From Cenarchaeum sp. (lineage in GTDB: Archaea > Thermoproteota > Nitrososphaeria > Nitrososphaerales > Nitrosopumilaceae), in NCBI GenBank assembly GCA_965212015.1, contig OZ243037.1:256001-320000 (forward strand): a stretch of 64,000 nt of DNA, written 5' to 3'. Under the pieces are notes generated by a model that saw only the letters and a list, made by a program, of their open reading frames with translations, did no database searches and was not told where the DNA came from. Below, one piece after another: positions 48,166 to 64,000 of this stretch (within the stretch, counting starts at the first letter, position 1; every line of letters starts with the position of its first letter). A program made the position numbers and the translations under genes.

Positions 48166-49757
48166 CCGGCAGACGCCCTGACAAACGCCCCAAACACCCG
48201 CTCCGGAAATCCCGGCCGGCTGTCAAACTCTGGATGGTACTGCACCCCAACAAAGAACCTGTGTGCGGGAATCTCTAGTATCTCCATCCTTTTTCCGCCG
48301 TCGCTCTCGCCTGTAAATATCATGCCGCCCTCTTTGAAGCGGTCCTGGTATTTCTTGTTAAACTCGTACCGGTGCCGGTGTCTCTTGGAGATTGTGCCGG
48401 CGCCGTATATCTCTGATGCCGCAGAATCTGCCGCAAGGCTGATCTCGTTTGCGCCAAGCCGCAGCGAGCCGCCCATGTCTGCGACTGACTTTTGCTCCGG
48501 CAGCAGGTCTATGAGCGGGTTTTTGGTATCCGGGTCGATCTCTGTCGAATTGCAGTCCATCCCAAGCACGCCCCTGCCAAAGGCCACCACTGCCAGCTGA
48601 AAGCCAAAGCAGATTCCAAGGTACGGAATGTCGTTCTTTATTGCGTGGTTGGCCGTCTTGATTATGCCTTCCGAGCCGCGCGTCCCAAACCCGCCGGGAA
48701 CCAGGATTCCGCCGTACTTTGAGAGCGTGTTATAGTCCGTTATGGACTCTGAGTCAATCCAGTCAATGTCGACTGACCTGCCAATAGTCGCCCCCGCGTG
48801 CCTTAGGGCGTGATTCACACTCACGTAACTGTCCGCCAGCGTGACGTATTTTCCGACCATCGCAATGCGAATCTTTTGATCCCCGTGATCCAGCATGGAA
48901 TCGACTATTCTGTTCCATTTGTCCCAGCTGGCAGACACGTTGACCAGGCCCACCTTGCCGAATTTTTTAAAGATAGAGTCCACAATCTGCTGGTCGTAGA
49001 GGATTTGCGGGATTTGTAGTATGGATTTTGCGTCGTGGCACGACAATACGTCGTTTTGTCCGACGTTGGTAAACAGCGCGATTTTTTTCTTTGTCCTTTC
49101 CTGGAGCGGGGAGGTGCACCGTACTGCCAGATAGTCCGGCTGGATGCCGATTCTTCGCAGCTCCTGCACGCTGTGCTGCGTGGGCTTTGTCTTTTGCTCC
49201 CCCACCACGTCCAGCGACGGTGCAAGCGTCACGTGCACGAAAATCGCGCTCTGCGGGCCGTCCTCGACGCGTATCTGTCTTAGCGCCTCCAAAAACGGCA
49301 GGCTCTCAATGTCGCCCACGGTGCCGCCGCACTCTACTATAAGAACGTCAAGATCCTCGTCCCCGGATATCCTTCTGATCCTGTTTTTGATCTCGTCTGT
49401 GACGTGCGGGATGATCTGCACGCACGCCCCGAGGTATTCCCCCCTTCTTTCTGACTCGATTACCGAGGAATAGACCTGCGCGGTGGTAATGTTGTGGCTT
49501 TTTGGAATGCACTGGTTGAGAAACCGCTCATAGTTTCCAATGTCCATGTCGCACTCTCCCCCGTCCCGGGTCACAAACACCTCGCCGTGAGCTATCGGGT
49601 TCATGGTGCCGGCATCATAGTTCAGGTAGGGGTCTATCTTTATGCAGGAGACTTTTTGGTTGGATAACTGGAGCAGTTTTGCAATGGAGGATGTGACTAT
49701 TCCCTTGCCCAGGCCGGACATTACCCCGCCTGTCACAAAGATGTAATTCGTCCGCAC
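48162..49757 (-). CDS. pyrG: CTP synthase
   Basis: [23 protein letters not shown]. Confidence 0.97.
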
Positions 49758-49946
49758 ATACGGGTAAAGACAGTCTCATTTTTATTCCTTTATCTTGCGA
49801 TTCGGGGCGTCCGGACTGCCTGCCCTTTTATGATCGCCTCGTGTCGGCCCCGGATTGCGGGTTTTACCGCCGTGTTTTCTTGCCATGGAATGGGCTTTGC
49901 CGCCATCCCGCTATCCGGGCCCCTGCCATGCGCCTGTCCACAAAGT

Positions 49947-50034
49947 CGGCAATTCTGGGGGTTCAAAGTGGGAAAAACCATCCAAAAATCCGCTGTGTAG
50001 GGTGTCAGAAAGTGAAATTAACGGACAATGCCTC
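49947..50034 (+). repeat. 88-bp direct repeat, copy 1
   Basis: cggcaatt..caaagtgggaaaaa.catccaaaaatc.gctgtgtag.gtgtcagaaagtgaaatta...gacaatgcctc; matches 53578-53664 with few differences. Confidence 0.93.
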
Positions 50035-50078
50035 TTGCCACGATCCGCTTATTTATCATGATTTTCCATCATATACTA

Positions 50079-51062
50079 ATGACAATGCTCAAAATCTTGG
50101 GAATTCTGGCAGTATTGGCAGTAGGCATGATTGCCATACCCGATATATCTGCCGTACGGTGCAGTGAGGACAAAAACCCCATACAGTCACCGCATGGAAA
50201 ACCGGCTTGTGTCTTTGATGATACGTTTGCCAAACTCTTGGAGAGGGGATGGAGTATGCCAACCTTGGATGGGCAGGATGTACCAACTGTTGGTTCTGTT
50301 GTACCGGATATAGACACATGGAACACGAGAGATCTTGCAATTCCATCTGATCCAGATGCAATGGGCGAATATATTGTCCTTAATAGTCTGTTTCCAATAT
50401 ATGAGGTAGAGATACCAAAAACTACACCGCTAAACGACGTCATGAACATAACCATACATTATGACTATTCGCCGCGATATACCTTCTATGATACGGAAAA
50501 TCCGTCGGAGTTTGATCCTGCAAATTCACAAAATCTAATATCGTTACGCCCAACTGTAAATAGTGAATTTATAGGACCAGAAGTGTTTTTCAGACACACA
50601 AAACACCTAGAGATGATCAGTGACTTTCCTTTGCTGGAGCGTGCTCCACCCGGTACCGACTATTATGGAGAAGGAATGTATTCATATTGGATAACCCTCC
50701 CATACAATGGAAACATACCGCATACGGAACAGGTATCATTCAGGGTCAAAAAACCAATGTTGTATAATCAAGAGGAATTTCACATATCAATGCCATCTAG
50801 TGAATCCCCCCAGCCTACCACCTGGTATTCCTCAACTAATGATGGAAGACTGACCATATCCCCTGTTCCAATATATGCTGAAGGTGCCGACGATGAATTT
50901 CCACAAAAAGGCATAGGAAAGTTCAACCCTCCGGGTTATCACAAAAGCGAACCAGGTGAGGGACCCATTAGTCCGGATCAGATAGACAGTCTTGCTCCGG
51001 AGGTTCAAAAGGCGATACGCGAATGGCAGGCAAAGACGAACAAAACAAATAATGCACCGTAA
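50079..51062 (+). CDS. Secreted hypothetical protein with C...PAC...L..RGW motif
   Basis: Signal peptide MLKILGILAVLAVGMIA; SPHGKPACVFDDTFAKLLERGW. Confidence 0.8.
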   Translation: MTMLKILGILAVLAVGMIAIPDISAVRCSEDKNPIQSPHGKPACVFDDTFAKLLERGWSMPTLDGQDVPTVGSVVPDIDTWNTRDLAIPSDPDAMGEYIVLNSLFPIYEVEIPKTTPLNDVMNITIHYDYSPRYTFYDTENPSEFDPANSQNLISLRPTVNSEFIGPEVFFRHTKHLEMISDFPLLERAPPGTDYYGEGMYSYWITLPYNGNIPHTEQVSFRVKKPMLYNQEEFHISMPSSESPQPTTWYSSTNDGRLTISPVPIYAEGADDEFPQKGIGKFNPPGYHKSEPGEGPISPDQIDSLAPEVQKAIREWQAKTNKTNNAP

Positions 51063-51086
51063 AATCAAAATATTATTGGAATAAAA

Positions 51087-51191
51087 TCAGTCGCTTTCAA
51101 GCATGTCTTTCTTCCACTGCGGAAGAGACTCGTAATAGTCGATCGCTATTTTGGCCTGCTCTTTCATCCAGCCTTCCCTAAATTTCAGCAT
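51087..51191 (-). CDS. Possible 34-aa microprotein
   Basis: MLKFREGWMKEQAKIAIDYYESLPQWKKDMLESD; ATG start, protein-like composition; too short for certainty. Confidence 0.35.
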   Translation of the reverse strand: MLKFREGWMKEQAKIAIDYYESLPQWKKDMLESD

Positions 51192-51629
51192 GCCTGTTAA
51201 ACGGGCAATTCCGTTATAAATCTTGATGGTCTAATTTTATTCCTTGTATAGCCCCTTTTCTTCCATTCTTTTTGCCAGATCCATGACTGCCAGAGTCTCA
51301 TCAACCACAAATTCCAGTGGTTCTGCAAATATCGGACCTGTTACCTATTTTGAGTTCAAATCTAATGATGTTTTTATAGGTGGGCTGATCAATTCTCTCG
51401 TATTGTTTAATCGATAGTTGGGAGAGGAATTAGAGGATTCCCATCATTTTGACAAATAGCTAATTTTGGATGTGATTTTGGAGTGTTTTTGCCAAAATAT
51501 GCCTTTTCTAGGCATCGATTCAGCGTTTAATTTTTATGGCAGGACGTCATAACATACATGGCAAGTAAGTCCACTGGTCGTGCCGCAAGGCGTAGGATTT
51601 ATCCGAAGGCACGTGGCATTGCGTTTTAG

Positions 51630-52391
51630 TCATGATAGTTTGAATGAACCAGAATTTATAAAATTTGGCCTGAGCAGATCCATGTAGGTAGAATCACTGT
51701 GTTTTAATGCAAAATGAAACGCACCTGCAACAAAATCACCTGCCCATATTCCGGGTGTTGTTAACGAATCTGCATCATGAAAAGTAATTTGCCCACGGTA
51801 GTTTTTTATATTCTGATTAGAATTATCTGTATCAGACATCCATTTGTTGAATGCAATTGTCTGAGTTGGATTCAATCTTCCACGATCATAAATCACTGTT
51901 GGAGCTGTTTCAAGACGTATATTTGGTAACATATTATCGAATAATGATTGCTTGAAGAGAGCATTCCCAATATTCTCTGGAATATTATTCTTATTCATGA
52001 TATCTATTTTATTAAGAATTCCAGCAAATATGCCATCAGATTTGTCAAGTATAACTTTAGCAATTTGATTTCTCACATCAGGATAATGAGGAATCCAATC
52101 TGATTTAATCACGTCATCTGTGTATCCCAATTTTTTTAATGCTCCTGTAGGATAAAATTTAATCTCTTTCAGTTTCGATGGATATAGATTATTTTTATGT
52201 AATTTTAGCAATAATTTATGAAGATGCTTATTTAATTTTTTAGGTTTTTTGGAATAGCAAAACCCCATGATAAAAAAAGGATGTTTTTTATTGTGATCTA
52301 ATTTTCCCATACCTGCATTGCCAGATTCATCAACATAAATTACATCATGTCTCATTTTACGTCTGTTAGCGAATCTAGAATAATCATTCAT
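51630..52391 (-). CDS. DUF3800 family protein
   Basis: IYVDESG at the N-terminus and GIWAGDFVAGA at the C-terminus; AT-rich. Confidence 0.8.
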   Translation of the reverse strand: MNDYSRFANRRKMRHDVIYVDESGNAGMGKLDHNKKHPFFIMGFCYSKKPKKLNKHLHKLLLKLHKNNLYPSKLKEIKFYPTGALKKLGYTDDVIKSDWIPHYPDVRNQIAKVILDKSDGIFAGILNKIDIMNKNNIPENIGNALFKQSLFDNMLPNIRLETAPTVIYDRGRLNPTQTIAFNKWMSDTDNSNQNIKNYRGQITFHDADSLTTPGIWAGDFVAGAFHFALKHSDSTYMDLLRPNFINSGSFKLS

Positions 52392-52429
52392 AATTTTTCA
52401 ACACACATGTCCATCAAGGATTTTATGCA

Positions 52430-52795
52430 CAAAGAAATCATATCTGTTGCAATTTTGATCTCTTTCATGTTGATTTTTCTTAATTCTCATATTTTTTTTA
52501 CTGCCAGAACTGCGGCAGAGTTTCCGCCCATCCTGCTTCACAGCTCATCTCCGCGGTTCATTCCGGATTCAATTCTGTCATATTCCGAATCATTCTTTTC
52601 CGGGTTTTCCAGCCCGACAATCTCCGTAAACAGGCCGCTGATCACAATCTTTTTTGATCTGTATCCGACCATACTCAGGGATCTGCCCAGAGAATCACAG
52701 ATTTGATCCAAGTCAACTCCCAGCGGTCCGACCAGTCCAAAAACCATCTCCGACCTGGATTTGTTCTTCAAGATTATTATATATGTTAAATTCAT
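52430..52795 (-). pseudogene. Truncated N-terminal P-loop domain of an anti-phage dCTP deaminase-like gene
   Basis: EMVFGLVGPLGVDL...GY....EYDRIE.GMNRGDEL*SR...AVLAVKKI*ELRK: two in-frame TGA; no deaminase domain present. Confidence 0.65.
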
Positions 52796-53577
52796 ATATT
52801 AAAATTTTGATCGTGAGATCTTGACAAAGCCCGTGCTCTATTTGATCCCGAACCTGCAGTCCTCAAATGATTCTGGAATTTTCAGTTTACGGGTAGGCAG
52901 TCATATGGTGTAACCGGAAAACAGCATCGATACGGATAAATCACTCCAGATACAACCCATATCAATGTCAGGATGCAGCATGCAGGATGCCTACGTTTTC
53001 AAATCCACTCATGTACGATATTCGTTATTTGCAGAAATCGGGCATAGGACTGCAAAACTGGAAAAACCTGAAATTATGCCTAATATTTCGAATCCCCCGC
53101 CTGTGCGGGATTCGAAATCATCAAAATGCGCCGGGACACGGCGCAGGGGTCTAGTTCTGCTTCCCTTCACACAGGCACACAGGGCGCAAGAGAAATCGTA
53201 CTGGGAAGCGGAACAATTCTGAAGGGAAGCGGAACCATACAGGGCAGAGGTAATTATACAATAACCGGACCTCATGCCCGTCTCATACATCATGATATGG
53301 TATGGTAAAGGAATTATTTATCTCTTTTTTTGTGCGTGATTCTCGGTCTTGCAGGAAACATGTCTTGCGATTATCTGCCATGTTCCACTGAATTTCACAC
53401 GTATGGGTTCCACACTGCTGGTCTTTTCTGCCTCTTGCGCGCGGGCCGAGTTTGAAGTCCTAGAGTGTATCTGTAGGGGAAATACAGTCCATCCAGAAAG
53501 GCCGGCAGATGGGTAAAATAACTGCCCCCAGTCATAAAATCGGCAAAGTCGGCAAAATCTGCCGACAATCCGAAAAA

Positions 53578-53664
53578 CGGCAATTTTGGGGATCAAAGTG
53601 GGAAAAAACATCCAAAAATCTGCTGTGTAGTGTGTCAGAAAGTGAAATTAATTGACAATGCCTC
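53578..53664 (+). repeat. 87-bp direct repeat, copy 2
   Basis: Matches 49947-50034. Confidence 0.93.
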
Positions 53665-53698
53665 ATCCCTTATTAGTAGGTAAAAAGTCCATTTTTGC

Positions 53699-54403
53699 AT
53701 GAACCAGCAGTACTATATCGTCTCTGCCCTTGCCGGCATGGCCATAATCGGCGCGTTCGTTTTTACGCATGTTCCCGAAGAAAACCCGGATGTGGAATTG
53801 CAGGATATCACTAATAACTATGATGCACGAGAAAATCTTACCATTATGGGAGGTGGCGGCGGTACCTCTTGGAGGACTACACACGTGCCAGACATTGCAG
53901 ATGATATTTCACACACGATTCGAGGAACTGTACTTTCTGTAGGGGAACCTATACACTGGGCGGAGAGAGAAATTGCTCCTCTAGGACATGCAGCATTTCC
54001 AGTCACCATGTCAGTGGATGAAATTTACAAGGGAACTTGGAATTCTACTACTTTTACGGTTTATGATCATATGTTTTATTACACATTAGATGATGATGGC
54101 AATCATGACCTGGCTTTTATAAATATAACTGCGACATTGCATGATCCAAACAAGGTTTATCTCAAATTGCCAGAACGTCCCCGATATGATATAGGCAAAG
54201 AATTAATCATACATACACAACCAGACAACGTTATGATTGAAAATTATCATGCAATAGATGACGTTGAATATCTTGAAGAATTTCTGCCATTTTATATCAC
54301 ACCATTGGGCGTATACTCTACATATACGATAAGAGATAACATTGCCTATGATCACTATGACAGAGTTATATCAATTGATGTTATAAGTACAGAAGCACAA
54401 TAA
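53699..54403 (+). CDS. Membrane-anchored or secreted hypothetical protein
   Basis: 234 aa, N-terminal hydrophobic helix; IRGTVLSV...VTMSVDEIYKG. Confidence 0.8.
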   Translation: MNQQYYIVSALAGMAIIGAFVFTHVPEENPDVELQDITNNYDARENLTIMGGGGGTSWRTTHVPDIADDISHTIRGTVLSVGEPIHWAEREIAPLGHAAFPVTMSVDEIYKGTWNSTTFTVYDHMFYYTLDDDGNHDLAFINITATLHDPNKVYLKLPERPRYDIGKELIIHTQPDNVMIENYHAIDDVEYLEEFLPFYITPLGVYSTYTIRDNIAYDHYDRVISIDVISTEAQ

Positions 54404-54406
54404 GTC

Positions 54407-54568
54407 ATGACTCAAAACCACTCCCATATCTTTTTACTTGTCATTGCATCAGTTTTTTTAATAACAACTTTTGTAGGTGCAGATGCACAACGTGATAATG
54501 TGCCTCTTGACAGTCATAATCAAATAGTATGTTATGATGTAAATTTGGTCTGGACCCCTCTAGAGTAA
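54407..54568 (+). pseudogene. Truncated secreted-protein gene (53 aa)
   Basis: MTQNHSHIFLLVIASVFLITTFVGADAQ signal peptide then a stop after about 25 residues; starts 3 bp after the upstream gene. Confidence 0.5.
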
Positions 54569-54825
54569 GACCACGATATCGCAGGCAGACGACGGGCCAA
54601 GCGGCAGTACGGGCGGGATTCCGATCGTGTTTTCGGCGGCAGACGGGGACAAGCTGGTAATAGAAATCGACGCCGACATCCGGATGATCAACACCACACA
54701 TGCCGAATCCCAGGTGCAGTAATTGCTGGGAACCACATCATGTGGTTAGAGATCCAGTCCAAGTTCAGTCCATTCTGATACACTAATGAATAGTGTTTTT
54801 TATATGGTATTACGATCTTGGAATC

Positions 54826-56373
54826 ATGATGAATCAGGCCATATTACTTCTAGTTGCCGGACTCTTTACAGCACATGTGGCATATGCGTATGCAGAACAG
54901 GATATAGACAAAAATGGCTCATCCGGACAGCCGGAATGCCAGATATGGCCCAACTGTACCATCGAGGTGCGCGAGTCAACGGAATACGTGTGGGGCAACA
55001 ACAAGACGGGAACCCGGACAGTAGAGCTGACCATAGAGTATCCGCCCCCGATCAAAGAGCTTGACGACTGTACAAAGGCCAGCGGTATCATACGGTGGGA
55101 TGCAAAGTTTGAGGGGCCAAAGGTTCTGCCGGATCTGCAGGAGGTAATAGATTCCGGCGCGGAACGGCTGTGCGTTACAATAGTGCATAATGTGGATGCG
55201 GCCACAATACGAGACTATGATATAGTACAAAAAAATATTTTAAGCCTACTAGGTCACAAGGACGTACAAACAGAGAGGGCCCAGTTTGCCCAATACCGCA
55301 CAATATGGGCGGCCATTCCCGCACACCTGCTCGATGATCTGGTAAAAAGCAATTATGTGGCAAACATTGATCTTTACGGCAAGGATCTTGAAATTCCGTG
55401 GCATATCACTCGGGGACTGGAATCCAAAGTTGACCCCCTGATATATCAAGAGATTGAAACCAAAATGAAACATTGTAGTCATTTTGAGGCCGGCTTGCCT
55501 TCCCCGACATATGACAGTAATTCTACCCTGATAGTACCAAGTGACTCGGATCTTGCATCATGTCCACTAGACAGGAATGCGGCCGGCTTGGAAACTCTCG
55601 AAGTATACATTGGATTGCCGAGGATTGAATTATGGCCAGATGGTTGGCCCGATGGTAAATACCCAACAAAAGAACAAAGGGTTGAGAGACGCATAGAAAA
55701 AAGCAAAGAAGTAGTAATGTCACAGCAGCCATTCATTGAATTTTTGGAATCAAACAATCAAACTGTAATATACAGATTTAATTTTACTAATTCACTTGAA
55801 GTCGATATTACCATTGATTTTCTGTCACAGCTTGAAGCAATGGATGAGGTGCTATATGTGGAGAGCCGCAATAATTTTGGCATACTTGCTGCCATAACGC
55901 CGGAGGAGCAAATGAAGATTGCCAACCAGTCCAGATCAACTTCTGATGAGACAGATGCAAAGTCCGACACACCTTCCAATAAAATCGACGTCAAGTTGGA
56001 CGGAGATAACGCTGTAATCAACATTTACGCGGACATAGTTCCAAGATCACTTCCCATAACGGACGAAATTATAGGAAAAAACGTTACCCTCCACATAAAC
56101 GACGGCCAGGTTCTGGACTATGAGGTGCTTCCCGGAGACGGACGATCAGATACCATGCTGGTGCTCTCAAACCCCGAAAAGAATACCTCCGAGCCCGCAC
56201 CGTTGCCATCACCAAAACAGCAGATCGCAGATGGCACGTCCCCGGATATGGTACAGTGTAGAGAAGGCCTCAGCCTCGCGATAATGAAGGAAAAACCCGT
56301 GTGCCTTTCCGAGCTCAGTATAGAAAAGCTTGCAAAGCGCGGATTAGACATAATTCGCGTCCACTTTCCATAA
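54826..56373 (+). CDS. Secreted hypothetical protein with two prodomain-like segments and C-terminal SPKQQ...C...C...KRG motif
   Basis: Signal peptide ending AYAYA; about 515 aa open frame. Confidence 0.82.
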   Translation: MMNQAILLLVAGLFTAHVAYAYAEQDIDKNGSSGQPECQIWPNCTIEVRESTEYVWGNNKTGTRTVELTIEYPPPIKELDDCTKASGIIRWDAKFEGPKVLPDLQEVIDSGAERLCVTIVHNVDAATIRDYDIVQKNILSLLGHKDVQTERAQFAQYRTIWAAIPAHLLDDLVKSNYVANIDLYGKDLEIPWHITRGLESKVDPLIYQEIETKMKHCSHFEAGLPSPTYDSNSTLIVPSDSDLASCPLDRNAAGLETLEVYIGLPRIELWPDGWPDGKYPTKEQRVERRIEKSKEVVMSQQPFIEFLESNNQTVIYRFNFTNSLEVDITIDFLSQLEAMDEVLYVESRNNFGILAAITPEEQMKIANQSRSTSDETDAKSDTPSNKIDVKLDGDNAVINIYADIVPRSLPITDEIIGKNVTLHINDGQVLDYEVLPGDGRSDTMLVLSNPEKNTSEPAPLPSPKQQIADGTSPDMVQCREGLSLAIMKEKPVCLSELSIEKLAKRGLDIIRVHFP

Positions 56374-56582
56374 CCAATATAATGAATCATATCTCATCTA
56401 AAGCCATGCAAATTTCCCCAATACTGCTAAGTGGACTCATCTTGGGTATGACCCTTTTTGGACAAGCCTTTGCACAGTCTGCCGGTGGGGACACATCAGT
56501 TACGATCGACGAAGAACTAGTTCACAGGATGGTAAACGGAACCTTTGTCATAGAGAGGCAGCCAGTCCAGATAACCACTATA

Positions 56583-57672
56583 TAGTCAAACGCATAAATA
56601 ATTTGAAACTGGCATAACCTTCATGAAATATTTCATCACGTCTAATGAATATTTCTTTGTCCTGAAATACTCGCACAGTGCATATTTCATCTCGTCAAAT
56701 GTACGGTAATATTCAGACACCATCAGGTCGTGTTTTGCCCGTCTCCACCATTCTTCCATTGGGTTGAATTCTGGGCATCCTTTGGGAAGATAAATCATCC
56801 GTATATCAGGATTCTTTTTTAGGAATTCCATGAGTGCCTTTGATTTGTGCGGGGTTGCCCTGTCTGCAATTACTGCGATTTTTCCAAAATGATTGTGCAA
56901 ATCGCCTATAAACCTGATGCATGTTTTGCTGTTAAATTTTTCAGCAGATCTAAAGAAATGTCTCCCGTCCGTTGTGATGCCGCCAAACATTGTAACGACA
57001 TCATGTCTACCGGTGTATGGTAGTAGAATTCTCTTATTTATTGGAGACCAGTATTTTTGGCCAGGTATTACATCATAGATAAAAAACGACTCGTCTATGA
57101 CCACAACGGTATATCCCAGATTTTCTAGGCGTGAAATTTGCGGTCCCACACCGTGCTGAAATTTCTCGATTTCTTCCTTGTCGGATTTTTGAATGTGTAT
57201 TCTCTGTGGGGTTTTTCTGGAATATTTTAGCTGGTGAAGGATCTTTGTAACATGTCTGATATGATATTTGACTCCGGTTTTTTCATATATCTGCTGCATC
57301 AGGGTTTTTGGTGTTATCTTTTCTGTATCATTCAGGATGGATTCGATTGTTTCTTTGGATACGAATGAGGGACGGCCAGATCTAGGCCTGTCCTCCAGGC
57401 CTTTTGCTCCATCTTTCTTGTATGCGTCTAGCCAGTTTTGCACTGACTGGTACGATACGAAGAATTCACGCGCGGTATCTGCCACACTGCGTCCGTTTAT
57501 TTCTATCATGCAGACTGCGTGCAGTCGATATCCTATTGGTGTGCGTCTGTTGCGTTTGTAGGCCAGAAGGAGTTCTTCATTTTTTGTATCCATGGTACGT
57601 ATGAATGATTAGTGATCAAAAAAGAGCTTGGTCAAAAGTTATTGATCTTCAAAAGACTTATGCGTTTGGCTA
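56583..57672 (-). mobile_element. IS630-family insertion sequence (1090 bp)
   Basis: Terminal IRs tagtcaaacgcataa / ttatgcgtttggcta (1 mismatch) flanked by duplicated TA at 56581-82 and 57673-74. Confidence 0.92.
56586..57593 (-). CDS. IS630-family transposase
   Basis: HTH region with RSGRP; DDE triad IDES, ADRATPH, PEFNPME; single ORF. Confidence 0.94.
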   Translation of the reverse strand: MDTKNEELLLAYKRNRRTPIGYRLHAVCMIEINGRSVADTAREFFVSYQSVQNWLDAYKKDGAKGLEDRPRSGRPSFVSKETIESILNDTEKITPKTLMQQIYEKTGVKYHIRHVTKILHQLKYSRKTPQRIHIQKSDKEEIEKFQHGVGPQISRLENLGYTVVVIDESFFIYDVIPGQKYWSPINKRILLPYTGRHDVVTMFGGITTDGRHFFRSAEKFNSKTCIRFIGDLHNHFGKIAVIADRATPHKSKALMEFLKKNPDIRMIYLPKGCPEFNPMEEWWRRAKHDLMVSEYYRTFDEMKYALCEYFRTKKYSLDVMKYFMKVMPVSNYLCV

Positions 57673-57781
57673 TAGAGAATGCTCGGATCGTGACTATTTA
57701 CCGTACAGGATACTTTCAGATTGGAGGCATGTCGTTGATACCTTTAATTTGCGTTAGGCTTTGATGTAAAACGTGTGATTT

Positions 57782-58324
57782 ATGACTAAAAAAAAGATTG
57801 TTCTGCTGGGCGTGTGCATTTTTTTATTCGTTGTGATATTTGCCCCCAGGCAGGCAGACATCTATCTGCGGGAATGGGTACCCGAAAGTGACGCAAATTA
57901 TTATAAAACCCCGACAATATTTTTTGGAATAAACAATTATTTTCATGATAAGGAGCTAGAATTTGTTAGTTGGTCTGATGATTTTCAAATTGTCGGTGAA
58001 AAACAACTGTTGGAAAAACCCTCCCAACTTTCACACGAAGAAAAATTTGATATCCTAACTTCAGAATGCAAATTGTTGTTCCAAAATCATTTGTCCCTAT
58101 GTGATGCAGGCGGCATTTTCGGCACCGCCGACATATGTTACCTTTATTATGACAAGAGCAGATATGAGTATTGCATATCCGTATATGATCATACCCGTAT
58201 TAGCAACGAGGAATGCAAAATGCTACATGAAAAATATCTTGAACGCTGGGAAGGAATACTTTCCAAGTCATTTTTCATTGATTTTGACAGATTTGCGGAT
58301 AATAATTGTAAAGGACGAATATGA
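57782..58324 (+). CDS. Membrane-anchored Cys-containing hypothetical protein
   Basis: 180 aa, N-terminal TM helix, six Cys in the C-terminal half. Confidence 0.7.
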   Translation: MTKKKIVLLGVCIFLFVVIFAPRQADIYLREWVPESDANYYKTPTIFFGINNYFHDKELEFVSWSDDFQIVGEKQLLEKPSQLSHEEKFDILTSECKLLFQNHLSLCDAGGIFGTADICYLYYDKSRYEYCISVYDHTRISNEECKMLHEKYLERWEGILSKSFFIDFDRFADNNCKGRI

Positions 58325-58573
58325 GATCTCCAAATGAGATGTGCCTTTTTCACTGGAAGATGCCGGCCTTGCCGCGCCATTCAGACATGGCAGTTTCAAC
58401 CACCTGATGACTCAAAGCCGGAATTTCACATGTAAGATCGGATATTTAATCCTGTCACATGCCCTGAATCTTGTAACGGGCTAGAGCGTGTTTGGATCCG
58501 TAGGTATGGAATCCGGATGATTACGAACATTTCATAGCATTGTTTAATTATCACAGACTATGAGAAAAGCCAG

Positions 58574-59944
58574 ATGCTCAAAGTGGTAATTCCCCTGATG
58601 TTCCTTATGGTCGCGATTCCGGCATATTCTGAAATCCTCTCGCCTGCGGCGCAGCTCAAAGCCGGTATAATGATACAGGATGTACAGTGTGATTATGAGA
58701 AAACCCTCCTGGCATCCCCCAACGGCAGGCCGGCCTGCACGTCATTTGAGACCGCAGAGAGGCTCGCGCAGCGCGGATGGAATATCATCCGGACATTTGA
58801 TGATATGCGGCCATCTGATGGAAATCAAACAAACTCGGTGATGTCTAATATTCCGGATGATATTACAAGCCGGAACGGTACCGAATCATCAGGCATGATC
58901 CACGATGAGACAAACCAGACGCAGTCAAATATTATATCTAACGGCAAAGAAATTGATGAAATGCCGGTAAAAGACGAGTATTATGATTTTATAAAAACTA
59001 CCACATATGGTAACATCACCTCGCAGCACAACGGCATGTATCTAGTCAACAACAATCACATTACACTGGCGGGAATTGAACCCCTGCCAAATCCTGACGG
59101 ATTCTGGTTTCCAACCACCATAGTAAACTATGAGCGCGCGATGCAGCAGATTGCAGACGGCATTGATGACAGGGTAATCCTGGAAATAATAAACCCCGAT
59201 CTGGCACACAAACAGGGCGCAAAGTATGAGACTGAGAAAGGAAACAAGATACGAGCAGGACGAAGTGCCATAATATTTACAATATCCGGACATGACGGTC
59301 TGTCTCAAGGCTCGCTTGACTACAAGGATGACCTGTTTGATCTGGACAAGCAGGCAAAATATTCCGCAGAAAGGGGACTTGCAAATGACAGGGACGCTGC
59401 AATAAGAAATTTTGTTGAAAAGACCGGACTGCCGGATGTTCGCAAAATAGTTCACGGCGATATCGCCGCTACCGTATATCTTAACAATCCTCCCAGCACC
59501 GGAAAAATGAAATTTGATTTTTGGTCTAACAATCATATAGAAATAACGGTATCTCCTTGGACGCAGAATCTAGATCTACCTAAAAATCTTGGTCAATATG
59601 AGATGTCCAAACGTATCCATCAATTTGCGCTCGATAATGCGCATGTATTTGATCCAAAACGTTGTAAATTCACCCCGTATGATGAGCCATATCGCTCATA
59701 TGCAGGCGTAGAGAGAATTCAAGCAGGGGTACCTATTCATTCCATGCGAGTAGGCACCTGTTTTAATTCTGATTATCCGGATCATCAACCTCTTCAAGCG
59801 GTTTACATGGAAGGCATCACGGGCGAGATCGGCTGGTTTGACTCTCAAGCACCGCTAGTCGAGGACTGGCTAGACAGGATAGACATTCCAGAGTCTGCCA
59901 AGGTAAGAGACTGTACGATATATTGGGGAAATGATCGCTGCTGA
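58574..59944 (+). CDS. Secreted hypothetical protein with N-terminal SP..Q...C...PAC...RGW motif
   Basis: Signal peptide ending PAYS; 456 aa. Confidence 0.82.
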   Translation: MLKVVIPLMFLMVAIPAYSEILSPAAQLKAGIMIQDVQCDYEKTLLASPNGRPACTSFETAERLAQRGWNIIRTFDDMRPSDGNQTNSVMSNIPDDITSRNGTESSGMIHDETNQTQSNIISNGKEIDEMPVKDEYYDFIKTTTYGNITSQHNGMYLVNNNHITLAGIEPLPNPDGFWFPTTIVNYERAMQQIADGIDDRVILEIINPDLAHKQGAKYETEKGNKIRAGRSAIIFTISGHDGLSQGSLDYKDDLFDLDKQAKYSAERGLANDRDAAIRNFVEKTGLPDVRKIVHGDIAATVYLNNPPSTGKMKFDFWSNNHIEITVSPWTQNLDLPKNLGQYEMSKRIHQFALDNAHVFDPKRCKFTPYDEPYRSYAGVERIQAGVPIHSMRVGTCFNSDYPDHQPLQAVYMEGITGEIGWFDSQAPLVEDWLDRIDIPESAKVRDCTIYWGNDRC

Positions 59945-60098
59945 TACCTTTATAAGCACTACCAAAGAATTTGTGTAATAGGTTAGGTTGAGCACGAGGC
60001 CAATTTTCCCTGATCCGCCCGATCTAAATAATTTTGAGATCTGCTCTGTGTCACAAGCTGCCTAATTTTTCCCAGCGTAAACTAATCTAGGATTAATC

Positions 60099-60520
60099 TT
60101 GGCTATGTCGGTAAGCTCTGCATATGCACAAACGCCGGAGCTTTTCCTCGATGTGCCCGAAGGCAAACAGGTCTGGACGCACGAGCAGTTTGTCCTGGAT
60201 TCCGGGACATACTTTAGGTTTGTATCGGACACCAGCGGATTTTTCTATCCGCAGTTTATAGACAATATATTGGTTACCGAAATACCATAGACGATTCCCG
60301 CCCGTGACGCATCAAGATGTTTTTTTCAAACCCTGCGTGTGATGATAATCATCATTTCTGTAGACATACACCATGTGCAAACGGGCCGGATCATAACTGC
60401 GATTGGAAACTTTGAATTACTCCCCTGTGCGTGATTCGAAATGATTGAATGGCGCCGGGTAAGGATGACGATGCGAACATTTGTTTCCCGACAATTCCGG
60501 CACAGGGCGCATTAAAATTC
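60099..60520 (+). pseudogene. Degraded secreted-protein gene fragment / dispersed repeat copy
   Basis: SVSSAYAQ signal-peptide end, stop after 63 aa; downstream DNA is similar to 52880-53200. Confidence 0.45.
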
Positions 60521-60766
60521 TTGTTAAATGCCACTGATAATTCAAAGGATGATGTATGGGTTAATTCCTGCATCATACAGTGGATGTATGTGTGATTATT
60601 TATTTCTTTGTATTGTACCGTGTATTGTATGGAAAAGAAAATTGATAAAATTACAATCATGCGAGACCGGACCGTACACTATGATTTGCGGGATATCGCA
60701 GAGTATTCGGCAAACACCAGACAGGCGGCACGGCCGGAGTATTGGACTGTATGACATTCGTGATTC

Positions 60767-61999
60767 CTATGCGCGCTTTCTGGAACGGGGCGTTGCACCG
60801 CCCTTTGCCTTTCTCTTCATCTCTGACATTTCCTTTTGCTGGTCCATATACATGGATTCGAGCGTCTCGAGCCTCTTGCACAGCACGTCAATTTCGGGCT
60901 CTTCGGCGGCCTTGGGCTCTGAGACTGTGGCGCTGCACCCCTTGCAGTGGCTCTTGTCAATATTGTTTCTTTTCCCGCATTTTTCGCACTTTATCATGTA
61001 TAGCTGGTTCCTACCCCTTCCCTTTTTCAGTCCGTGCAGCCTTAGGATGGCGTCCTCCTGGTCAGAGTCGGCAAGATGCTCGTAATATGCGAGCATGTTG
61101 GAGCCTTTCTTCCAGTTGCCATAAACCCTGGCCACGTTGCCCAACGTTTTGGATTTATCAGTCAGCGCCGTGTGCCGGAGCAGGTACGGGTATATCCTTT
61201 TTGATATGCCTGATTTTTTGTAGATGGTATTGAATGCATGCAGGAATATCTTGTATCTGCGATCCGAGCGGTAATTCGAAAAAAACAGGTAGGCGTCATG
61301 GTTTGCCGAGTCGGGATGATCTTCTAGCCACTCTTTTATGGGCTCCCGGGTGGTGACAAGGGCGAGATCCTTGGGCCCTGTCTTGCCGTGCGTGGATACC
61401 CTGACAAAATCCCTGTGGAATTCAAGCCCGCCAATCTTGATGTTGAGCAGCTCCCCCGGGCGGTATGCACCCTCGCGTATGGCGTACAGCATTGCGAGGT
61501 TCTGCTTTACGTACCTGCCGCCCTTTTTCTTTGCCGTCTGAAGCAGGCGGACAAACTGTGCAAAGGTAACGAGATCCTTGGCCTGAAGGGAGCAGTACCT
61601 GTTTTGAAACTCGCCCGGCCTTATCCACGCCACGCGCGGGTCGTACTTTATGTCACGTTTTGGATCGGCTATGTTGCCGTGTATGGCAAAGTGGTATATC
61701 CGCCTGAGCGTCGTCAGCGTGTCCTTTTTTGTAGAGTTGGCCCAGTCGCACGACGCTATCTCCAGGTGTATGTCGTGGATGTTCTTTTTGTTCCACTCGT
61801 TTACCGGCTTGTTGCAGATGGCGAGGATTCTCTTTAATGATTCGGCGTAAAACGATATCCTGGCGTCGGATCGGTTGAGCATTTTGAGTGCGTCGAAAAA
61901 ATCAGACGCAAGCCGGCCGTTGCATTCGCCGTATTGCTCCATGATTGCCATGCGGGCATTTTCGATCTTTTTCCTGCATCCGTGTATGTCCTCTGCCAT
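60767..61999 (-). CDS. Tyrosine recombinase/integrase 1 with C-terminal zinc ribbon and coiled coil
   Basis: R (GAYRPGE), K (HGKTG), YxxR (YLLRH), GNW, catalytic Y (YYEHL), CEKC..CKGC. Confidence 0.92.
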   Translation of the reverse strand: MAEDIHGCRKKIENARMAIMEQYGECNGRLASDFFDALKMLNRSDARISFYAESLKRILAICNKPVNEWNKKNIHDIHLEIASCDWANSTKKDTLTTLRRIYHFAIHGNIADPKRDIKYDPRVAWIRPGEFQNRYCSLQAKDLVTFAQFVRLLQTAKKKGGRYVKQNLAMLYAIREGAYRPGELLNIKIGGLEFHRDFVRVSTHGKTGPKDLALVTTREPIKEWLEDHPDSANHDAYLFFSNYRSDRRYKIFLHAFNTIYKKSGISKRIYPYLLRHTALTDKSKTLGNVARVYGNWKKGSNMLAYYEHLADSDQEDAILRLHGLKKGRGRNQLYMIKCEKCGKRNNIDKSHCKGCSATVSEPKAAEEPEIDVLCKRLETLESMYMDQQKEMSEMKRKAKGGATPRSRKRA

Positions 62000-62401
62000 G
62001 CCTGACCTCTGGAAAAAAAATTATAAAAATACCTGTATTTTAAAATATTAATTTCCCAATTAATTTCTACGTGCCTGTATAATACGGGGTGTTTTCAAGA
62101 CAACGGGCCGGACTTGCAAATCCCGTCATGACGGCGATATCAAGGGAATCGTACCGGTATGACAAACTTTGAACCGCACCGACAGGTTTGTATTGGCATA
62201 TCAGAAACACGCTCCATGTTCATTCATGTGTGTGGCCGCAAACAATTGAACGGCGGAATAAAAATCGACACCTCTCTTGTTGGTGACATTCGATATTTGC
62301 AAGAGCTAGGCACAAGAGTGTGTTACACCATGGTATATGCAATAATCACGACTAGAAACATCGAATCCCTTACACGAAAGATACCCAAAATGGCAGGGGG
62401 G

Positions 62402-62522
62402 CGCCGGGTAGGGATTCGAACCCTTGCGTCGGGATTGTAGGCGTGATTTTGCAGATTTGGGCAGCCTTTTGGCCCTGCCTAGTCGAGATCCATACCGGAA
62501 GGGTTGGAATCCCACACCGGCG
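62402..62522. other. Inverted pair of tRNA-3'-end-like (att-like) sites
   Basis: 62402-62425 read on minus: aagggttcgaatccctacccggcg; 62499-62522 on plus: aagggttggaatcccacaccggcg (20/24 identical); no D-arm or anticodon arm found. Confidence 0.65.
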
Positions 62523-62621
62523 GCCTGTCCAGCACCATACCCTATGGATCGGCGCAGAGCTTGTCGGAGGTTCAATATGAAAGTTCCGGGGGGGCTTAAA
62601 AGGGCCTCACAATTGGGAAAC

Positions 62622-63917
62622 ATGGCAAAATATACCATATCGGAGGACATTCACAACTATGCCCGCAAGATGGAACGGGGCAGAAAGAGGCTCCTGGCGC
62701 ACCCCAGCGGCAAGACTGCCATCGAGTTCCTGGCCGAGCTGGGCCTGCGGGGAATCACTCCTGCAAGGCAGTGCCTGTACCTTGACCGCCTGTTTACCAT
62801 AATGAAGCAGCTTGAAAAGAGCGGGGTGCATATAAGAGACGTTTCGACCGCGCAGTGCAAGGAAATGCTTGCCGACATTATAGCGGGCGACTATGCCGGC
62901 GAGACAAAATCGGCGTATGCCATGTGCCTGCAAAGATTCGTCCACTATGCAAAGACCGGCCTCATCGGCGACCGCCGCACCGGATATGCCGAGGAGGTTG
63001 CCTGGATTATGCCCTCAAAGTACAGGGGCAGAAGATCAAACGTCAGGAAAAAGGACCTGCTGACGCCCGAAGAGTTTGTAAAAATTGTAAAATGCACCAA
63101 AAGCGTCCGGGACAGGGCCATGCTCTGGGTAATGTACGAGGGCGCGTTCCGCCCAGGCGAGATGCTCAACATGCGCGTCGGCGGCATAGAGTTTGCCGAC
63201 GAGTATGTGATAATCAGCACGCACGGCAAGACCGACCAAAAATCTGTCGCCCTGGTCTTTGCGTTCCGTCCCCTGCTGGACTGGCTTGAGGAGCATCCGC
63301 TGTACGATGACCCCGACGCGCCATTATGGTGGTCAAAGTGGTCGCACAACGGATGTGTAAACTATCCCACGCTAAGCAAGGTAGTCACGGTATCTGCCGC
63401 CCGCGCGGGAATAACAAAGCGCGTCTGGGGATACCTGCTGAGGCACTCGCAACTGACGCATCTTGCCACAAAGCTTCCTGACCAGATCCTGCGCGTGTAC
63501 GGCAACTGGTCCCCCGGCTCCAGGATGGTGTCCCGGTACACGCACCTCTCCTCGCGCGATGCCATGAACGCCGTGCTGAGCCTGCACGGCATTGCGCGCG
63601 AGGAGCCAAAGGGCGGGGGACTGATGGTGTGCCCCCGGTGCAACAAGCGCTCGCCGCCGGACGTCCGGCGCTGCACGGAATGCGGATACATGCTTGACGA
63701 GGCCGCGCGCGCGGCACTGACCCGCGACGATCTGGAAAAATCCAGGATACACAGCGGCACGATAAGCATGCCCGCTAAAACAATCACACCCGCAAAAAAT
63801 GCCGGGTTTAGAGTCACCGTCGACGAGGGGCTGTTTGGGGATGGCATGCCGGAGACGGGCGGGGTCCGGGACGCACAGCCTGGCTCCTTTTCGGACTCGG
63901 CCTATGTCGACGTCTAG
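62622..63917 (+). CDS. Tyrosine recombinase/integrase 2 with C-terminal zinc ribbon
   Basis: GAFRPGE, HGKTD, YLLRH, GNW, RYTHL, CPRC..CTEC; start placed at MAKYTISEDIH by alignment with integrase 1 (MAEDIH). Confidence 0.92.
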   Translation: MAKYTISEDIHNYARKMERGRKRLLAHPSGKTAIEFLAELGLRGITPARQCLYLDRLFTIMKQLEKSGVHIRDVSTAQCKEMLADIIAGDYAGETKSAYAMCLQRFVHYAKTGLIGDRRTGYAEEVAWIMPSKYRGRRSNVRKKDLLTPEEFVKIVKCTKSVRDRAMLWVMYEGAFRPGEMLNMRVGGIEFADEYVIISTHGKTDQKSVALVFAFRPLLDWLEEHPLYDDPDAPLWWSKWSHNGCVNYPTLSKVVTVSAARAGITKRVWGYLLRHSQLTHLATKLPDQILRVYGNWSPGSRMVSRYTHLSSRDAMNAVLSLHGIAREEPKGGGLMVCPRCNKRSPPDVRRCTECGYMLDEAARAALTRDDLEKSRIHSGTISMPAKTITPAKNAGFRVTVDEGLFGDGMPETGGVRDAQPGSFSDSAYVDV

Positions 63918-64000
63918 CCCGGCAGCCTTTTGCCGCGGTTTTTTTTGCCCTTAAATGGCCCCCGTATTTGTTGCGTATGCTAAAGATTGGACTTGACATC

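Follow-up and report, generated by a model that had tools for sequence, protein, structure and literature searches.

A Divergent Integrase Pair in a Cenarchaeum Genome as a Probable Junction of Mobile Elements at tRNA-Ser(CGA)

Introduction

When a tyrosine integrase inserts a mobile element into a tRNA gene, the tRNA is rebuilt and a copy of its 3′ end, the att core, is left at the far end of the element. Tyrosine integrases of the pNOB8 type (class II) in archaea carry an R...YxxR...Y pattern (She et al., 2004, as summarised in the part of PMC8371274 used here). In Thaumarchaeota, elements integrate at the 3′-distal part of tRNA genes and form arrays that re-use one att site, according to the portion of the survey by Krupovic et al. 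(2019; PMC6563490) on which we draw.

In this work, a 64,000-nt stretch of the genome of Cenarchaeum sp., an ammonia-oxidising archaeon, was analysed (contig OZ243037.1, positions 256,001 to 320,000; the window), in which two integrase genes, int1 and int2, point away from each other across a hub of roughly 620 bases where the T-arm and acceptor end of a tRNA recur in inverted orientation. We consider it probable (about 0.7) that the hub is the junction of mobile elements integrated successively into the 3′ end of a single thaumarchaeal tRNA-Ser(CGA) gene. In that case, int1 and int2 would be the recombinases of separate mobile elements piled up at one tRNA-Ser. The locus shares with the thaumarchaeal integrated elements, as far as they are covered in that portion of PMC6563490, a tyrosine integrase, 3′-distal tRNA integration, short direct repeats, plasmid-like or cryptic elements with defence cargo, array-forming re-use of a site, and IS insertions within the elements. 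It differs in that one element is inverted relative to its tRNA, which is why the att scars have an integrase gene on either side, each pointing outward; such an arrangement was not found described in the same portion of that survey. With the pNOB8-type integrases, as outlined in part of PMC8371274, it shares the R...YxxR...Y pattern, a gene that stays intact on integration and att sites outside the gene. This likeness is one of motif and layout, and int1 and int2 differ by a C-terminal Zn ribbon. The att cores are also shorter here, 13–27 nt against the 40–50 bp quoted for Sulfolobales in that part of PMC8371274.

Results and Discussion

Integrases and the Layout of Their Family

Both integrases are intact and related, as the initial annotation of the window had stated: their reading frames are open (Table 1), they share 33% identity over 367 residues (E 1e-66), and both match PF00589 above its curated cut-off of 27.1 bits (int1, E 5e-12, 46.4 bits; int2, E 7e-15, 55.6 bits). 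The likely true start of int2 is 62622, and the gene caller's 446-aa product starts at 62577. In an alignment of 24 sequences that included int1 and int2, the catalytic residues R177, K203, R274, W296, and Y306 (int2 numbering) were invariant, and both proteins also keep the invariant columns of R274-H275 and of the four Zn-ribbon cysteines. The motif YLLRH is present in both, with Y271 and R274 invariant among nine close relatives. Both proteins thus show the R...YxxR...Y pattern in place of HxxR and their relatives adjoin tRNA genes, in keeping with the pNOB8-type traits named in the initial annotation. Both genes are whole and the att cores lie outside them, so the integrase is not split by integration. 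The TATA-like motif ahead of int2 likewise precedes the integrase in relatives.

Table 1. Features of the hub and of the adjoining DNA (positions in the window).
Feature	Position	Strand	Description
Site E	53087–53135 (core 53122–53135)	−	14-nt exact copy, then a hairpin
IS630/DDE_3 transposon	56578–57677	−	30-nt terminal inverted repeats; inserted in older foreign DNA
Site C	60448–60464	−	Exact 13-nt match to the 3′ end of tRNA-Ser, strand of A; about 300 nt past the int1 stop
int1	60767–61999	−	Open ORF; intact 410-aa tyrosine integrase with C-terminal Zn ribbon
TATA-like box, int1	62021–62029	−	22–30 nt before the int1 start; putative promoter
Fragment D	62361–62376	+	15/16 match to the tRNA-Ser 3′ region, opposite strand
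Fragment A	62401–62426	−	T-arm and acceptor 3′ end copied from tRNA-Ser(CGA), 25/27 identical
Spacer between A and B	62427–62500		Neither strand resembles the 5′ part of the tRNA
Fragment B	62501–62524	+	Decayed T-arm/acceptor-like core
TATA-like box, int2	62595–62602	+	20–27 nt before the int2 start; putative promoter
int2	62622–63917 (ORF 62424–63917)	+	Open ORF; intact 431-aa tyrosine integrase

The closest relatives of int2 (51%) adjoin tRNA-Ser(CGA). Relatives of int1 (41–47%) were located at other tRNA-Ser genes (TGA, GGA, GCT) in four of five loci, the fifth being without a tRNA in its flank. No close relative was found of int1 in the metagenome collection or of int2 in the genome and viral collections. 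The layout of the family in other genomes shows itself to be very regular: an intact tRNA directly precedes the integrase. Among 60 relatives, 11 of 16 non-self loci had such a tRNA on the same strand; four of the other five were without a tRNA in the 1.5-kb flank, and one had a tRNA placed otherwise. A scan of named genome records, built on an alignment of nine integrase sequences, gave the same arrangement in 18 of 19 loci, with estimated gaps of 49–117 nt between tRNA and integrase; the 19th locus was cut by the contig end. The two sets overlap, as some genomes occur in both. Recurrence of the head-to-head pair in related genomes, by which the initial annotation proposed to check its reading, was not observed, since none of the 19 loci had a second integrase within 4 kb. 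Similarly, two integrase matches close together were seen in none of the 11 other genomes with matches.

Attachment-Site Fragments Between the Integrases

The inverted T-arm/acceptor-like arms noted at the outset are real. They lie at 62399–62428 and 62496–62525, are complementary at 24 of 30 positions and are 67 nt apart. When the mononucleotides of the 800-nt region were shuffled, 3 of 200 shuffles reached this complementarity. A second inverted pair, around 62361–70 and 62410–19, is real as well. The palindrome at 62123–34 does exist but is unremarkable, because the window holds 21 perfect 12-nt palindromes against about 15.6 expected. No full tRNA is present, as had been reported: ARAGORN called none in the window, and Rfam gave none in 60000–64000 at E up to 10, with sub-threshold chance matches as the sole result.

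An intact tRNA-Ser(CGA), present in one copy among the 45 ARAGORN calls for the genome, was found at genome 337620–337702, on the strand of fragment A, 17.6 kb past the window end and 19.2 kb from A. It supplies the matching att that had been sought past 64000, with 25 of 27 positions identical to A. The two differences are one substitution and a one-base deletion in A, the latter corresponding to the spacing noted earlier as one base off. Fragment A also has a 9-nt insertion ahead of the ATTTTG flank common to A and the tRNA. The proposed match of the inverted copies to tRNAs of the genome holds for A. Fragment B is decayed and has no partner repeat in 300–345 kb of the genome. In the T-loop of fragment B, a G stands at the expected C56. 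A search of the 20 kb past the window at up to 3 mismatches gave 0 matches for a partner of B, and a scan of the metagenome collection with the B motif gave no close relative. Sharing the strand of int2, B ends about 96 nt ahead of it, where the core usually lies in the family. Fragment D is the counterpart of one arm of a hairpin that also follows sites C and E. When the spacer was tested as a possible relic of the 5′ half of the tRNA, its score on either strand was no better than that of shuffles. Between A and int1 (61990–62360), tRNA-like remnants reached a best score of 22, where shuffles averaged 21.2. The hub is the scar of an attachment site and does not mark the loss of a tRNA.

The Element Between tRNA-Ser(CGA) and Fragment A

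The intact tRNA-Ser(CGA) and fragment A, as the distal direct repeat, bracket a 19.2-kb element, E2 (genome 318427–337619). The tRNA gene and the direct repeat of its 3′ end enclose DNA of atypical GC with plasmid and defence genes; foreign low-GC DNA extends from about 50000 in the window through to the tRNA, the genome average being 51.1% GC. E2 comprises int2, an actin/MreB-like gene, a MazE-like gene and a gene for a 1036-aa ATPase whose matches to type IV coupling-protein and AAA domains are weak and fall below the cut-off. In addition, the element has a perfect, iteron-like array of 19-nt tandem repeats and a low-GC defence cargo of a type II restriction-modification pair, a SNF2/ZorD-like helicase and a NOV_C-domain protein. 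No att scar was found at the GC break within E2 (323.9–328 kb). The analysis shows E2 to be an integrative plasmid-like element, the newest at tRNA-Ser(CGA).

The genome contains a third paralogue, int3, which follows tRNA-Asp, with an exact 15-nt repeat 19.7 kb away. The element that carries it, E3, has the usual layout of the family. The backbones of E2 and E3 are collinear (integrase 47%, MreB-like protein 62%, and ATPase 71% amino acid identity), with 70.5% nucleotide identity over 4.1 kb and 82–100% in the repeat region. The cargo beyond the backbone is mutually unrelated and low in GC in both elements, and the elements themselves are similar in size. E2 and E3 are paralogous elements. 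Two related integrative plasmid-like elements of 19–20 kb are thereby defined in a small thaumarchaeal genome, at tRNA-Ser and tRNA-Asp.

Orientation of E2 at Its tRNA

The usual order in the family is tRNA, integrase, cargo, repeat. E2 has the reverse order, its integrase end adjoining A and its cargo end adjoining the tRNA, and int1 and int2 are divergent for this reason. The initial annotation had offered two elements joined head to head after loss of the tRNA; the separate elements were close to right, but the tRNA stands intact 19.2 kb away. Under successive integration, fragment B may be the vestige of a core in the place ahead of int2 that is usual for the family, and the core used for integration would have been 67 nt further upstream of B in the opposite orientation and would now be split between the tRNA and A. 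Which enzyme made the E2 insertion and where the inverted core came from are matters of inference here. Against successive integration, the usual layout predicts int2 beside the intact tRNA, whereas int2 occupies the opposite end and the tRNA is followed by no integrase remnant. Moreover, A is imperfect and the inverted repeats that flank the rebuilt attP of E2 are weak (score reached by 160 of 2000 shuffles).

The 200 nt past the tRNA resemble the DNA past A (1 of 200 shuffles reached the score) and the DNA past B (0 of 200), and had no likeness to three control stretches or to three arms of other loci. A search for an integrase remnant after the tRNA or in the older array gave nothing credible; one weak match after the tRNA (E 0.003) was rejected as a small HNH-like ORF with CxxC pairs. 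A doubtful extension of the main reading is that the head of E2 (core, arm, integrase start) was once duplicated in inverted orientation and that the copies decayed in complementary ways. One copy would have kept int2 and lost its core, now B, and the other would have kept the working tRNA-Ser core and lost its integrase; the tRNA and A would now each hold part of this core, and a stub-like flank would follow the tRNA. If true, the element integrates backwards and possibly flips between B and the tRNA core, which would be a concrete route for archaeal elements to change the polarity or the target of an att site.

It is also conceivable, though unlikely, that E2 integrated in the usual orientation (tRNA-Ser, int2, cargo) and was later flipped as a whole, either by site-specific recombination of B with the tRNA core or by homologous recombination of head sequences in inverted orientation. 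In favour of a flip, B (+) is inverted relative to the tRNA core (−) at a distance of 19.1 kb, the DNA past the tRNA resembles that past B as far as the int2 start, and archaeal inversions between related integrated elements are described in the consulted part of PMC8371274. However, a reciprocal exchange within the cores would put the former tRNA 3′ end in B, and the acceptor part of B is unpaired with the 5′ end of this tRNA, besides its defective T-loop. A flip would still require a pre-existing inverted core beside A, and no strand-change joint occurs among 15 of the 35 public-contig joints, those that were listed. The public contigs, assembled contigs throughout, were compared over genome 305001–324600, short of the tRNA end. 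Within that range and in two relatives, no excised or empty form of E2 was seen. In both relatives, the sequences next to tRNA-Ser(CGA) have their counterparts elsewhere in this genome, so synteny is broken and no empty site is demonstrable there; CTP synthase and tRNA-Ser were not neighbours in the relatives examined for an empty site.

Successive integration treats A as the boundary of E2. Somewhat less probable again than a flip is that A and B are unrecombined attP-type sites of one composite element with two integrase-att modules head to head, bounded by the tRNA and by site C or E. Short inverted repeats surround A (12/14) and B (8/8), and in E3 inverted repeats flank the unrecombined attP. 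Those of E3 are perfect (14/14, score reached by 1 of 2000 shuffles), whereas those around A and B are statistically weak (65 and 133 of 2000, respectively). Inverted arm repeats as a marker of recombined versus unrecombined sites were dropped, being significant for E3 alone. Public-contig joints that go back also connect DNA left of A or of C with DNA right of E, and they might represent circle or tandem junctions of a segment of 9.2 kb or 7.2 kb. These joints come from short contigs of mixed populations, with a shorter side of 38–60 letters, and paralogous repeats are present in the region. From B to the tRNA, E2 matches its paralogue E3 in size and bipartite build, which fits A as a boundary. 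Nor was any other locus with two integrases seen among the 19 loci and the 11 other genomes with matches.

With successive integration as the preferred reading, a seemingly strange tRNA-less att hub resolves into an ordinary integration hot spot and a known kind of genome scar. The sole unusual point is that E2 lies backwards beside a vestigial core, a small and testable case of attachment-site turnover.

Older DNA Beyond Fragment A

The int1 gene is located on the far side of A from E2. Site E is on the same strand as A, and its 14 nt combine the final 8 nt of the tRNA with 6 nt from the flank that follows. Sites C and E are 78% identical over 49 nt, and their flanks are homologous (z 11.6). 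In outline, these features show int1 to be part of older, eroded element DNA with the same-strand core copies C and E. Fragment A is the tRNA-side junction of this older DNA. It need not be the original junction of int1 itself, because 401 nt separate it from the int1 start, compared with an estimated 57–80 nt in four loci of the int1 clade.

The array also bears on the proposal, made in the initial annotation, of a domesticated inversion or shuffling system acting on surface-protein genes. A dedicated two-recombinase switch on the hub or on neighbouring secreted-protein genes is very improbable. In its favour, two intact recombinase genes diverge from inverted core-like sites, several secreted proteins without a family assignment are encoded alongside, and the contig depth of this DNA in public runs is high and varies. 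Against it, the pair does not recur (19 loci; 11 other genomes) and no core-like inverted pairs flank the neighbouring genes. The segment between A and B is just 67 nt, and the cores of the gene array, C and E, are direct and not inverted repeats. Inverted repeats of at least 18 nt in 49500–64000 were limited to the ends of the IS630-type transposon and four short pairs unrelated to the core. Furthermore, the int1 and int2 clades adjoin tRNA genes as element integrases do. Like the fim switch and the shufflons, which are invertible-DNA switches with recombinases of their own, the locus has inverted sequences resembling recombinase sites beside recombinase genes. Unlike them, it is without a defined invertible coding or promoter segment and without conservation in other genomes, so that inverted sites bounding a functional segment and conserved together with the recombinase were not found; its sites repeat the end of a tRNA and, as direct repeats, also delimit a 19-kb element. 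Nothing suggests a new recombination system or a new switch.

Integrase genes and the DNA between them

The locus, part of a complete 1.76-Mb archaeal genome (window G000:C1:256001-320000), is an integration hot spot of the ordinary kind at a tRNA gene. At least two elements, and probably three or four, are stacked there, and one of them (E2, the element with int2, genome 318427-337619) lies backwards beside a vestigial core, fragment B. The two intact, related and diverging integrase genes of the initial annotation, int1 and int2, are as described: their products share 33% identity (E 1e-66), both match PF00589, and in a 24-sequence alignment both have the catalytic residues of the invariant columns and the four cysteines of the Zn ribbon. 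Their YxxR motif is YLLRH, and YxxR is the signature of pNOB8-type integrases in the part of a review that deals with them (PMC8371274). The int2 start was taken from homology, because similarity of its ORF to int1 starts at residue 72 and relatives begin a few residues ahead of the DIH motif. Named relatives of the two proteins come from Nitrosopumilus, Nitrosarchaeum, Nitrosotenuis, Nitrosotalea and Nitrososphaera, which makes the host a thaumarchaeon.

The inverted tRNA-like arms reported between the integrases are real, forming a 30-nt inverted repeat with 24/30 complementary positions and 67 nt between the arms, a complementarity reached by 3/200 shuffles. As had been stated, there is no full tRNA here: ARAGORN found no tRNA gene in the whole window, and Rfam gave nothing meaningful over 60000-64000. 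The perfect 12-nt palindrome singled out in the same DNA is of the chance type, since the window has 21 such palindromes against an expected ~15.6.

Features of the locus (window coordinates unless marked)
Feature	Position	Strand	Description
int1	60767-61999	-	410 aa, intact ORF
int2	62622 (start taken)	+	ORF open from 62424; start from homology; gene caller's 446-aa product implies 62577
Fragment A	62426 to 62401	-	tRNA-like fragment
Fragment B	62501-62524	+	tRNA-like fragment
Motif D	62361-62376		after A
Site C	60464 to 60448	- (strand of A)	13-nt exact tRNA-Ser end copy, ~300 nt past int1 stop
Site E	53135 to 53122	- (strand of A)	14-nt exact: last 8 nt of tRNA and 6 nt of downstream flank
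IS630/DDE_3 transposon	56578-57677		335-aa transposase; 30-nt inverted ends, 83% complementary
Joints that go back	53157-53242 to 60459, 60788, 62408 (L053 4157-4242 to 11459, 11788, 13408)		contig joints
tRNA-Ser(CGA)	genome 337620-337702	same as A	intact
E2, start			int2, then MreB/actin-like gene, 1036-aa ATPase and MazE-like gene
E2 tandem array	L001 4716-4994 (genome 324716-324994)		perfect 19-nt x 14.7
E2 low-GC block			NOV_C-domain protein, SNF2/ZorD-like helicase, three unknowns, type II methylase-endonuclease pair
E3	genome 744578-764333 (outside the window; L015 covers integrase end)		tRNA-Asp(GTC), int3, backbone, low-GC cargo, exact 15-nt repeat

Fragment A and tRNA-Ser(CGA)

Among the 45 ARAGORN tRNAs of the genome, fragment A best matches the T-arm and acceptor 3' strand of tRNA-Ser(CGA), the sole gene of its kind, with 25/27 columns identical, one substitution and a one-base deletion, which accounts for the spacing noted earlier as one base off. 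This gene lies 19.2 kb to the right, 17.6 kb past the window end, so that A and the tRNA end, being on the same strand, are direct repeats around 19.2 kb. The proposal of two elements joined head-to-head after loss of the tRNA is close, with the correction that the tRNA is intact and was not lost. Counting against a tidy story, A has a 9-nt insertion ahead of the shared flank and is 401 nt from int1, compared with about 57-80 nt (from match coordinates) in relatives of the int1 clade.

The acceptor stem of tRNA-Ser(CGA) has a G:C pair here and A:T in five relatives (L028-L032), both strands having changed, and the att scars all bear the local G:C version. In two relatives, the neighbours of this tRNA correspond to positions at 696 kb and 264-270 kb in the present genome, and the tRNA locus has therefore been rearranged.

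Integrase layout in relatives and in populations

Among 60 relatives, 11 other genomes had matches at E 1e-20 or better, and an intact same-strand tRNA lay directly upstream of the integrase at 11/16 non-self loci; of the remaining five, four lacked a tRNA in the 1.5 kb around and the fifth had one placed otherwise. The same layout was found at 18/19 loci in named genome records, the 19th ending at a contig edge, with gaps estimated from match coordinates at 49-117 nt. These two sets overlap in some genomes and many genomes are kin, so the counts are not independent. The targets are tRNA-Ser (CGA, TGA, GGA, GCT), Met, Glu, Phe, Asp and Gly; the closest int2 relatives (51%) are at tRNA-Ser(CGA), and the int1 clade (41-47%) is at other tRNA-Ser genes at 4/5 loci, the fifth having no tRNA in its 1.5-kb flank. 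In a Nitrosarchaeum MAG, the integrase at tRNA-Phe is followed 1.2 kb on by a second, divergent tRNA-Phe(GAA) call on the other strand (L014 3807-3893 / L040 6304-6390). This call may be false, or the element may carry a tRNA-like gene.

A dedicated two-recombinase inversion or shuffling system, as had also been proposed, would lead one to expect the pair elsewhere. A second integrase match was found near none of the 19 loci (up to 4 kb searched), and none of the 11 other genomes had two neighbouring matches; the head-to-head pair is thus not a conserved architecture, and such a system is not supported. The region is present in three public runs from two studies, with both integrase genes in 3/3, and a 1623-nt contig over int1 has 37-39 differences in runs X2 and X3. 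In assembled contigs compared over genome 305001-324600 only, there was no strand-changing joint of the kind inversion isoforms would give among the 15 of 35 joints listed. Three joints go back to the right side of E, from the int1 end or from just left of A or C. Circle or tandem junctions of segments of 9.2 kb or 7.2 kb could explain them, but in mixed populations paralogous repeats could equally produce such joints as artefacts.

Element E2, its paralogue E3 and the reversed orientation

A third paralogue, int3 (47% to int2), lies directly after tRNA-Asp(GTC), and element E3 is bounded 19.7 kb further on by 15 nt that repeat the end of this tRNA exactly. The backbones of E2 and E3 are collinear (MreB-like 62% aa, ATPase 71% aa, 70.5% nt over 4.1 kb, repeat region 82-100% nt), and past them the cargo is unrelated and low-GC in both. 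With this shared backbone, low-GC cargo and a size of ~19 kb, E2 (from B to the tRNA) is built and sized like E3, a member with the usual layout. Its GC is 54-59% over the first 7 kb, then 33-46% (genome 51.1%), and no att scar was found at the break. Matches of its ATPase to TrwB-type coupling-protein and AAA domains are weak and below cut-off. Palindrome-rich 54-nt repeats (L001 4330-4474) accompany the 19-nt array, and together they look like plasmid iterons or an origin; parts of this region are 100% identical to E3. In the rebuilt attP of E3 (its own attachment site), a perfect 14-nt inverted repeat flanks the core (1/2000 shuffles reach it). A small HNH-endonuclease-like ORF (L001 16947-17183, -; CxxC...HNH...CxxC) lies ~440 nt after tRNA-Ser, adjoining the restriction-modification pair at the cargo end of E2.

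Compared with the usual layout, E2 is reversed: its cargo end adjoins the tRNA, and int2 adjoins A, pointing inward. Fragment B is core-like and lies on the strand of int2, ~96 nt ahead of that gene, exactly at the place of the tRNA end in relatives. It is decayed, with G in place of the universal C56 of the T-loop and an acceptor part that misfits tRNA-Ser(CGA). No partner repeat was found for B, nor any tRNA derivation for the spacer between A and B (62427-62500). In the simplest formal description, E2 as a circle would have had a good tRNA-Ser core, oriented opposite to B and 67 nt upstream of it, and would have integrated by way of that core. Reciprocal exchange in the palindromic TTCGAA of the T-loop, whether as antiparallel integration, inversion or cointegrate, was considered by reasoning; all three models predict one fused palindrome and were set aside because two complete T-arms 67 nt apart are observed. 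The 200 nt after the tRNA resemble the DNA after A (1/200 shuffles reach the score) and, as far as the start of int2, the DNA after B (0/200), with no likeness to three control stretches or three arms of other loci. This likeness fits, weakly, related junctions and perhaps also a head of E2 that was once duplicated in inverted orientation.

Older DNA to the left of int1

On the left, host genes stop with CTP synthase at 49757. From ~50000 to 60700 the DNA is low in GC and encodes secreted proteins without Pfam match, a DUF3800 protein and an IS630-type transposon; no integrase remnant was found there. Two further tRNA-end copies lie in it, sites C and E (by arithmetic, the 44 kb scanned would contain a given 14-mer 3e-4 times), sharing a 49-nt stretch (78% identity, z 11.6) that includes a hairpin with T-arm-like arms. 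The further inverted motif annotated at 62361-70 is real, and D, which contains it, is the counterpart of one of these arms after A. Core copies and low-GC foreign DNA left of A give the appearance of an element stack at one att site. For Thaumarchaeota and other archaea, PMC6563490 describes element arrays at one att site as well as integration into the 3'-distal part of tRNA genes, and the locus falls within this known kind of site.

The secreted or membrane-anchored proteins without Pfam match are encoded at 50028-51062, 53699-54403, 54793-56373, 57782-58324 and 58574-59944, and two of them have in common a motif that centres on a conserved Cys and ERGW. Ahead of two of these genes stand the copies of an 88-nt direct repeat (91% identical; 49947-50034 and 53578-53664), and contig depth over them in the public runs is high and uneven.
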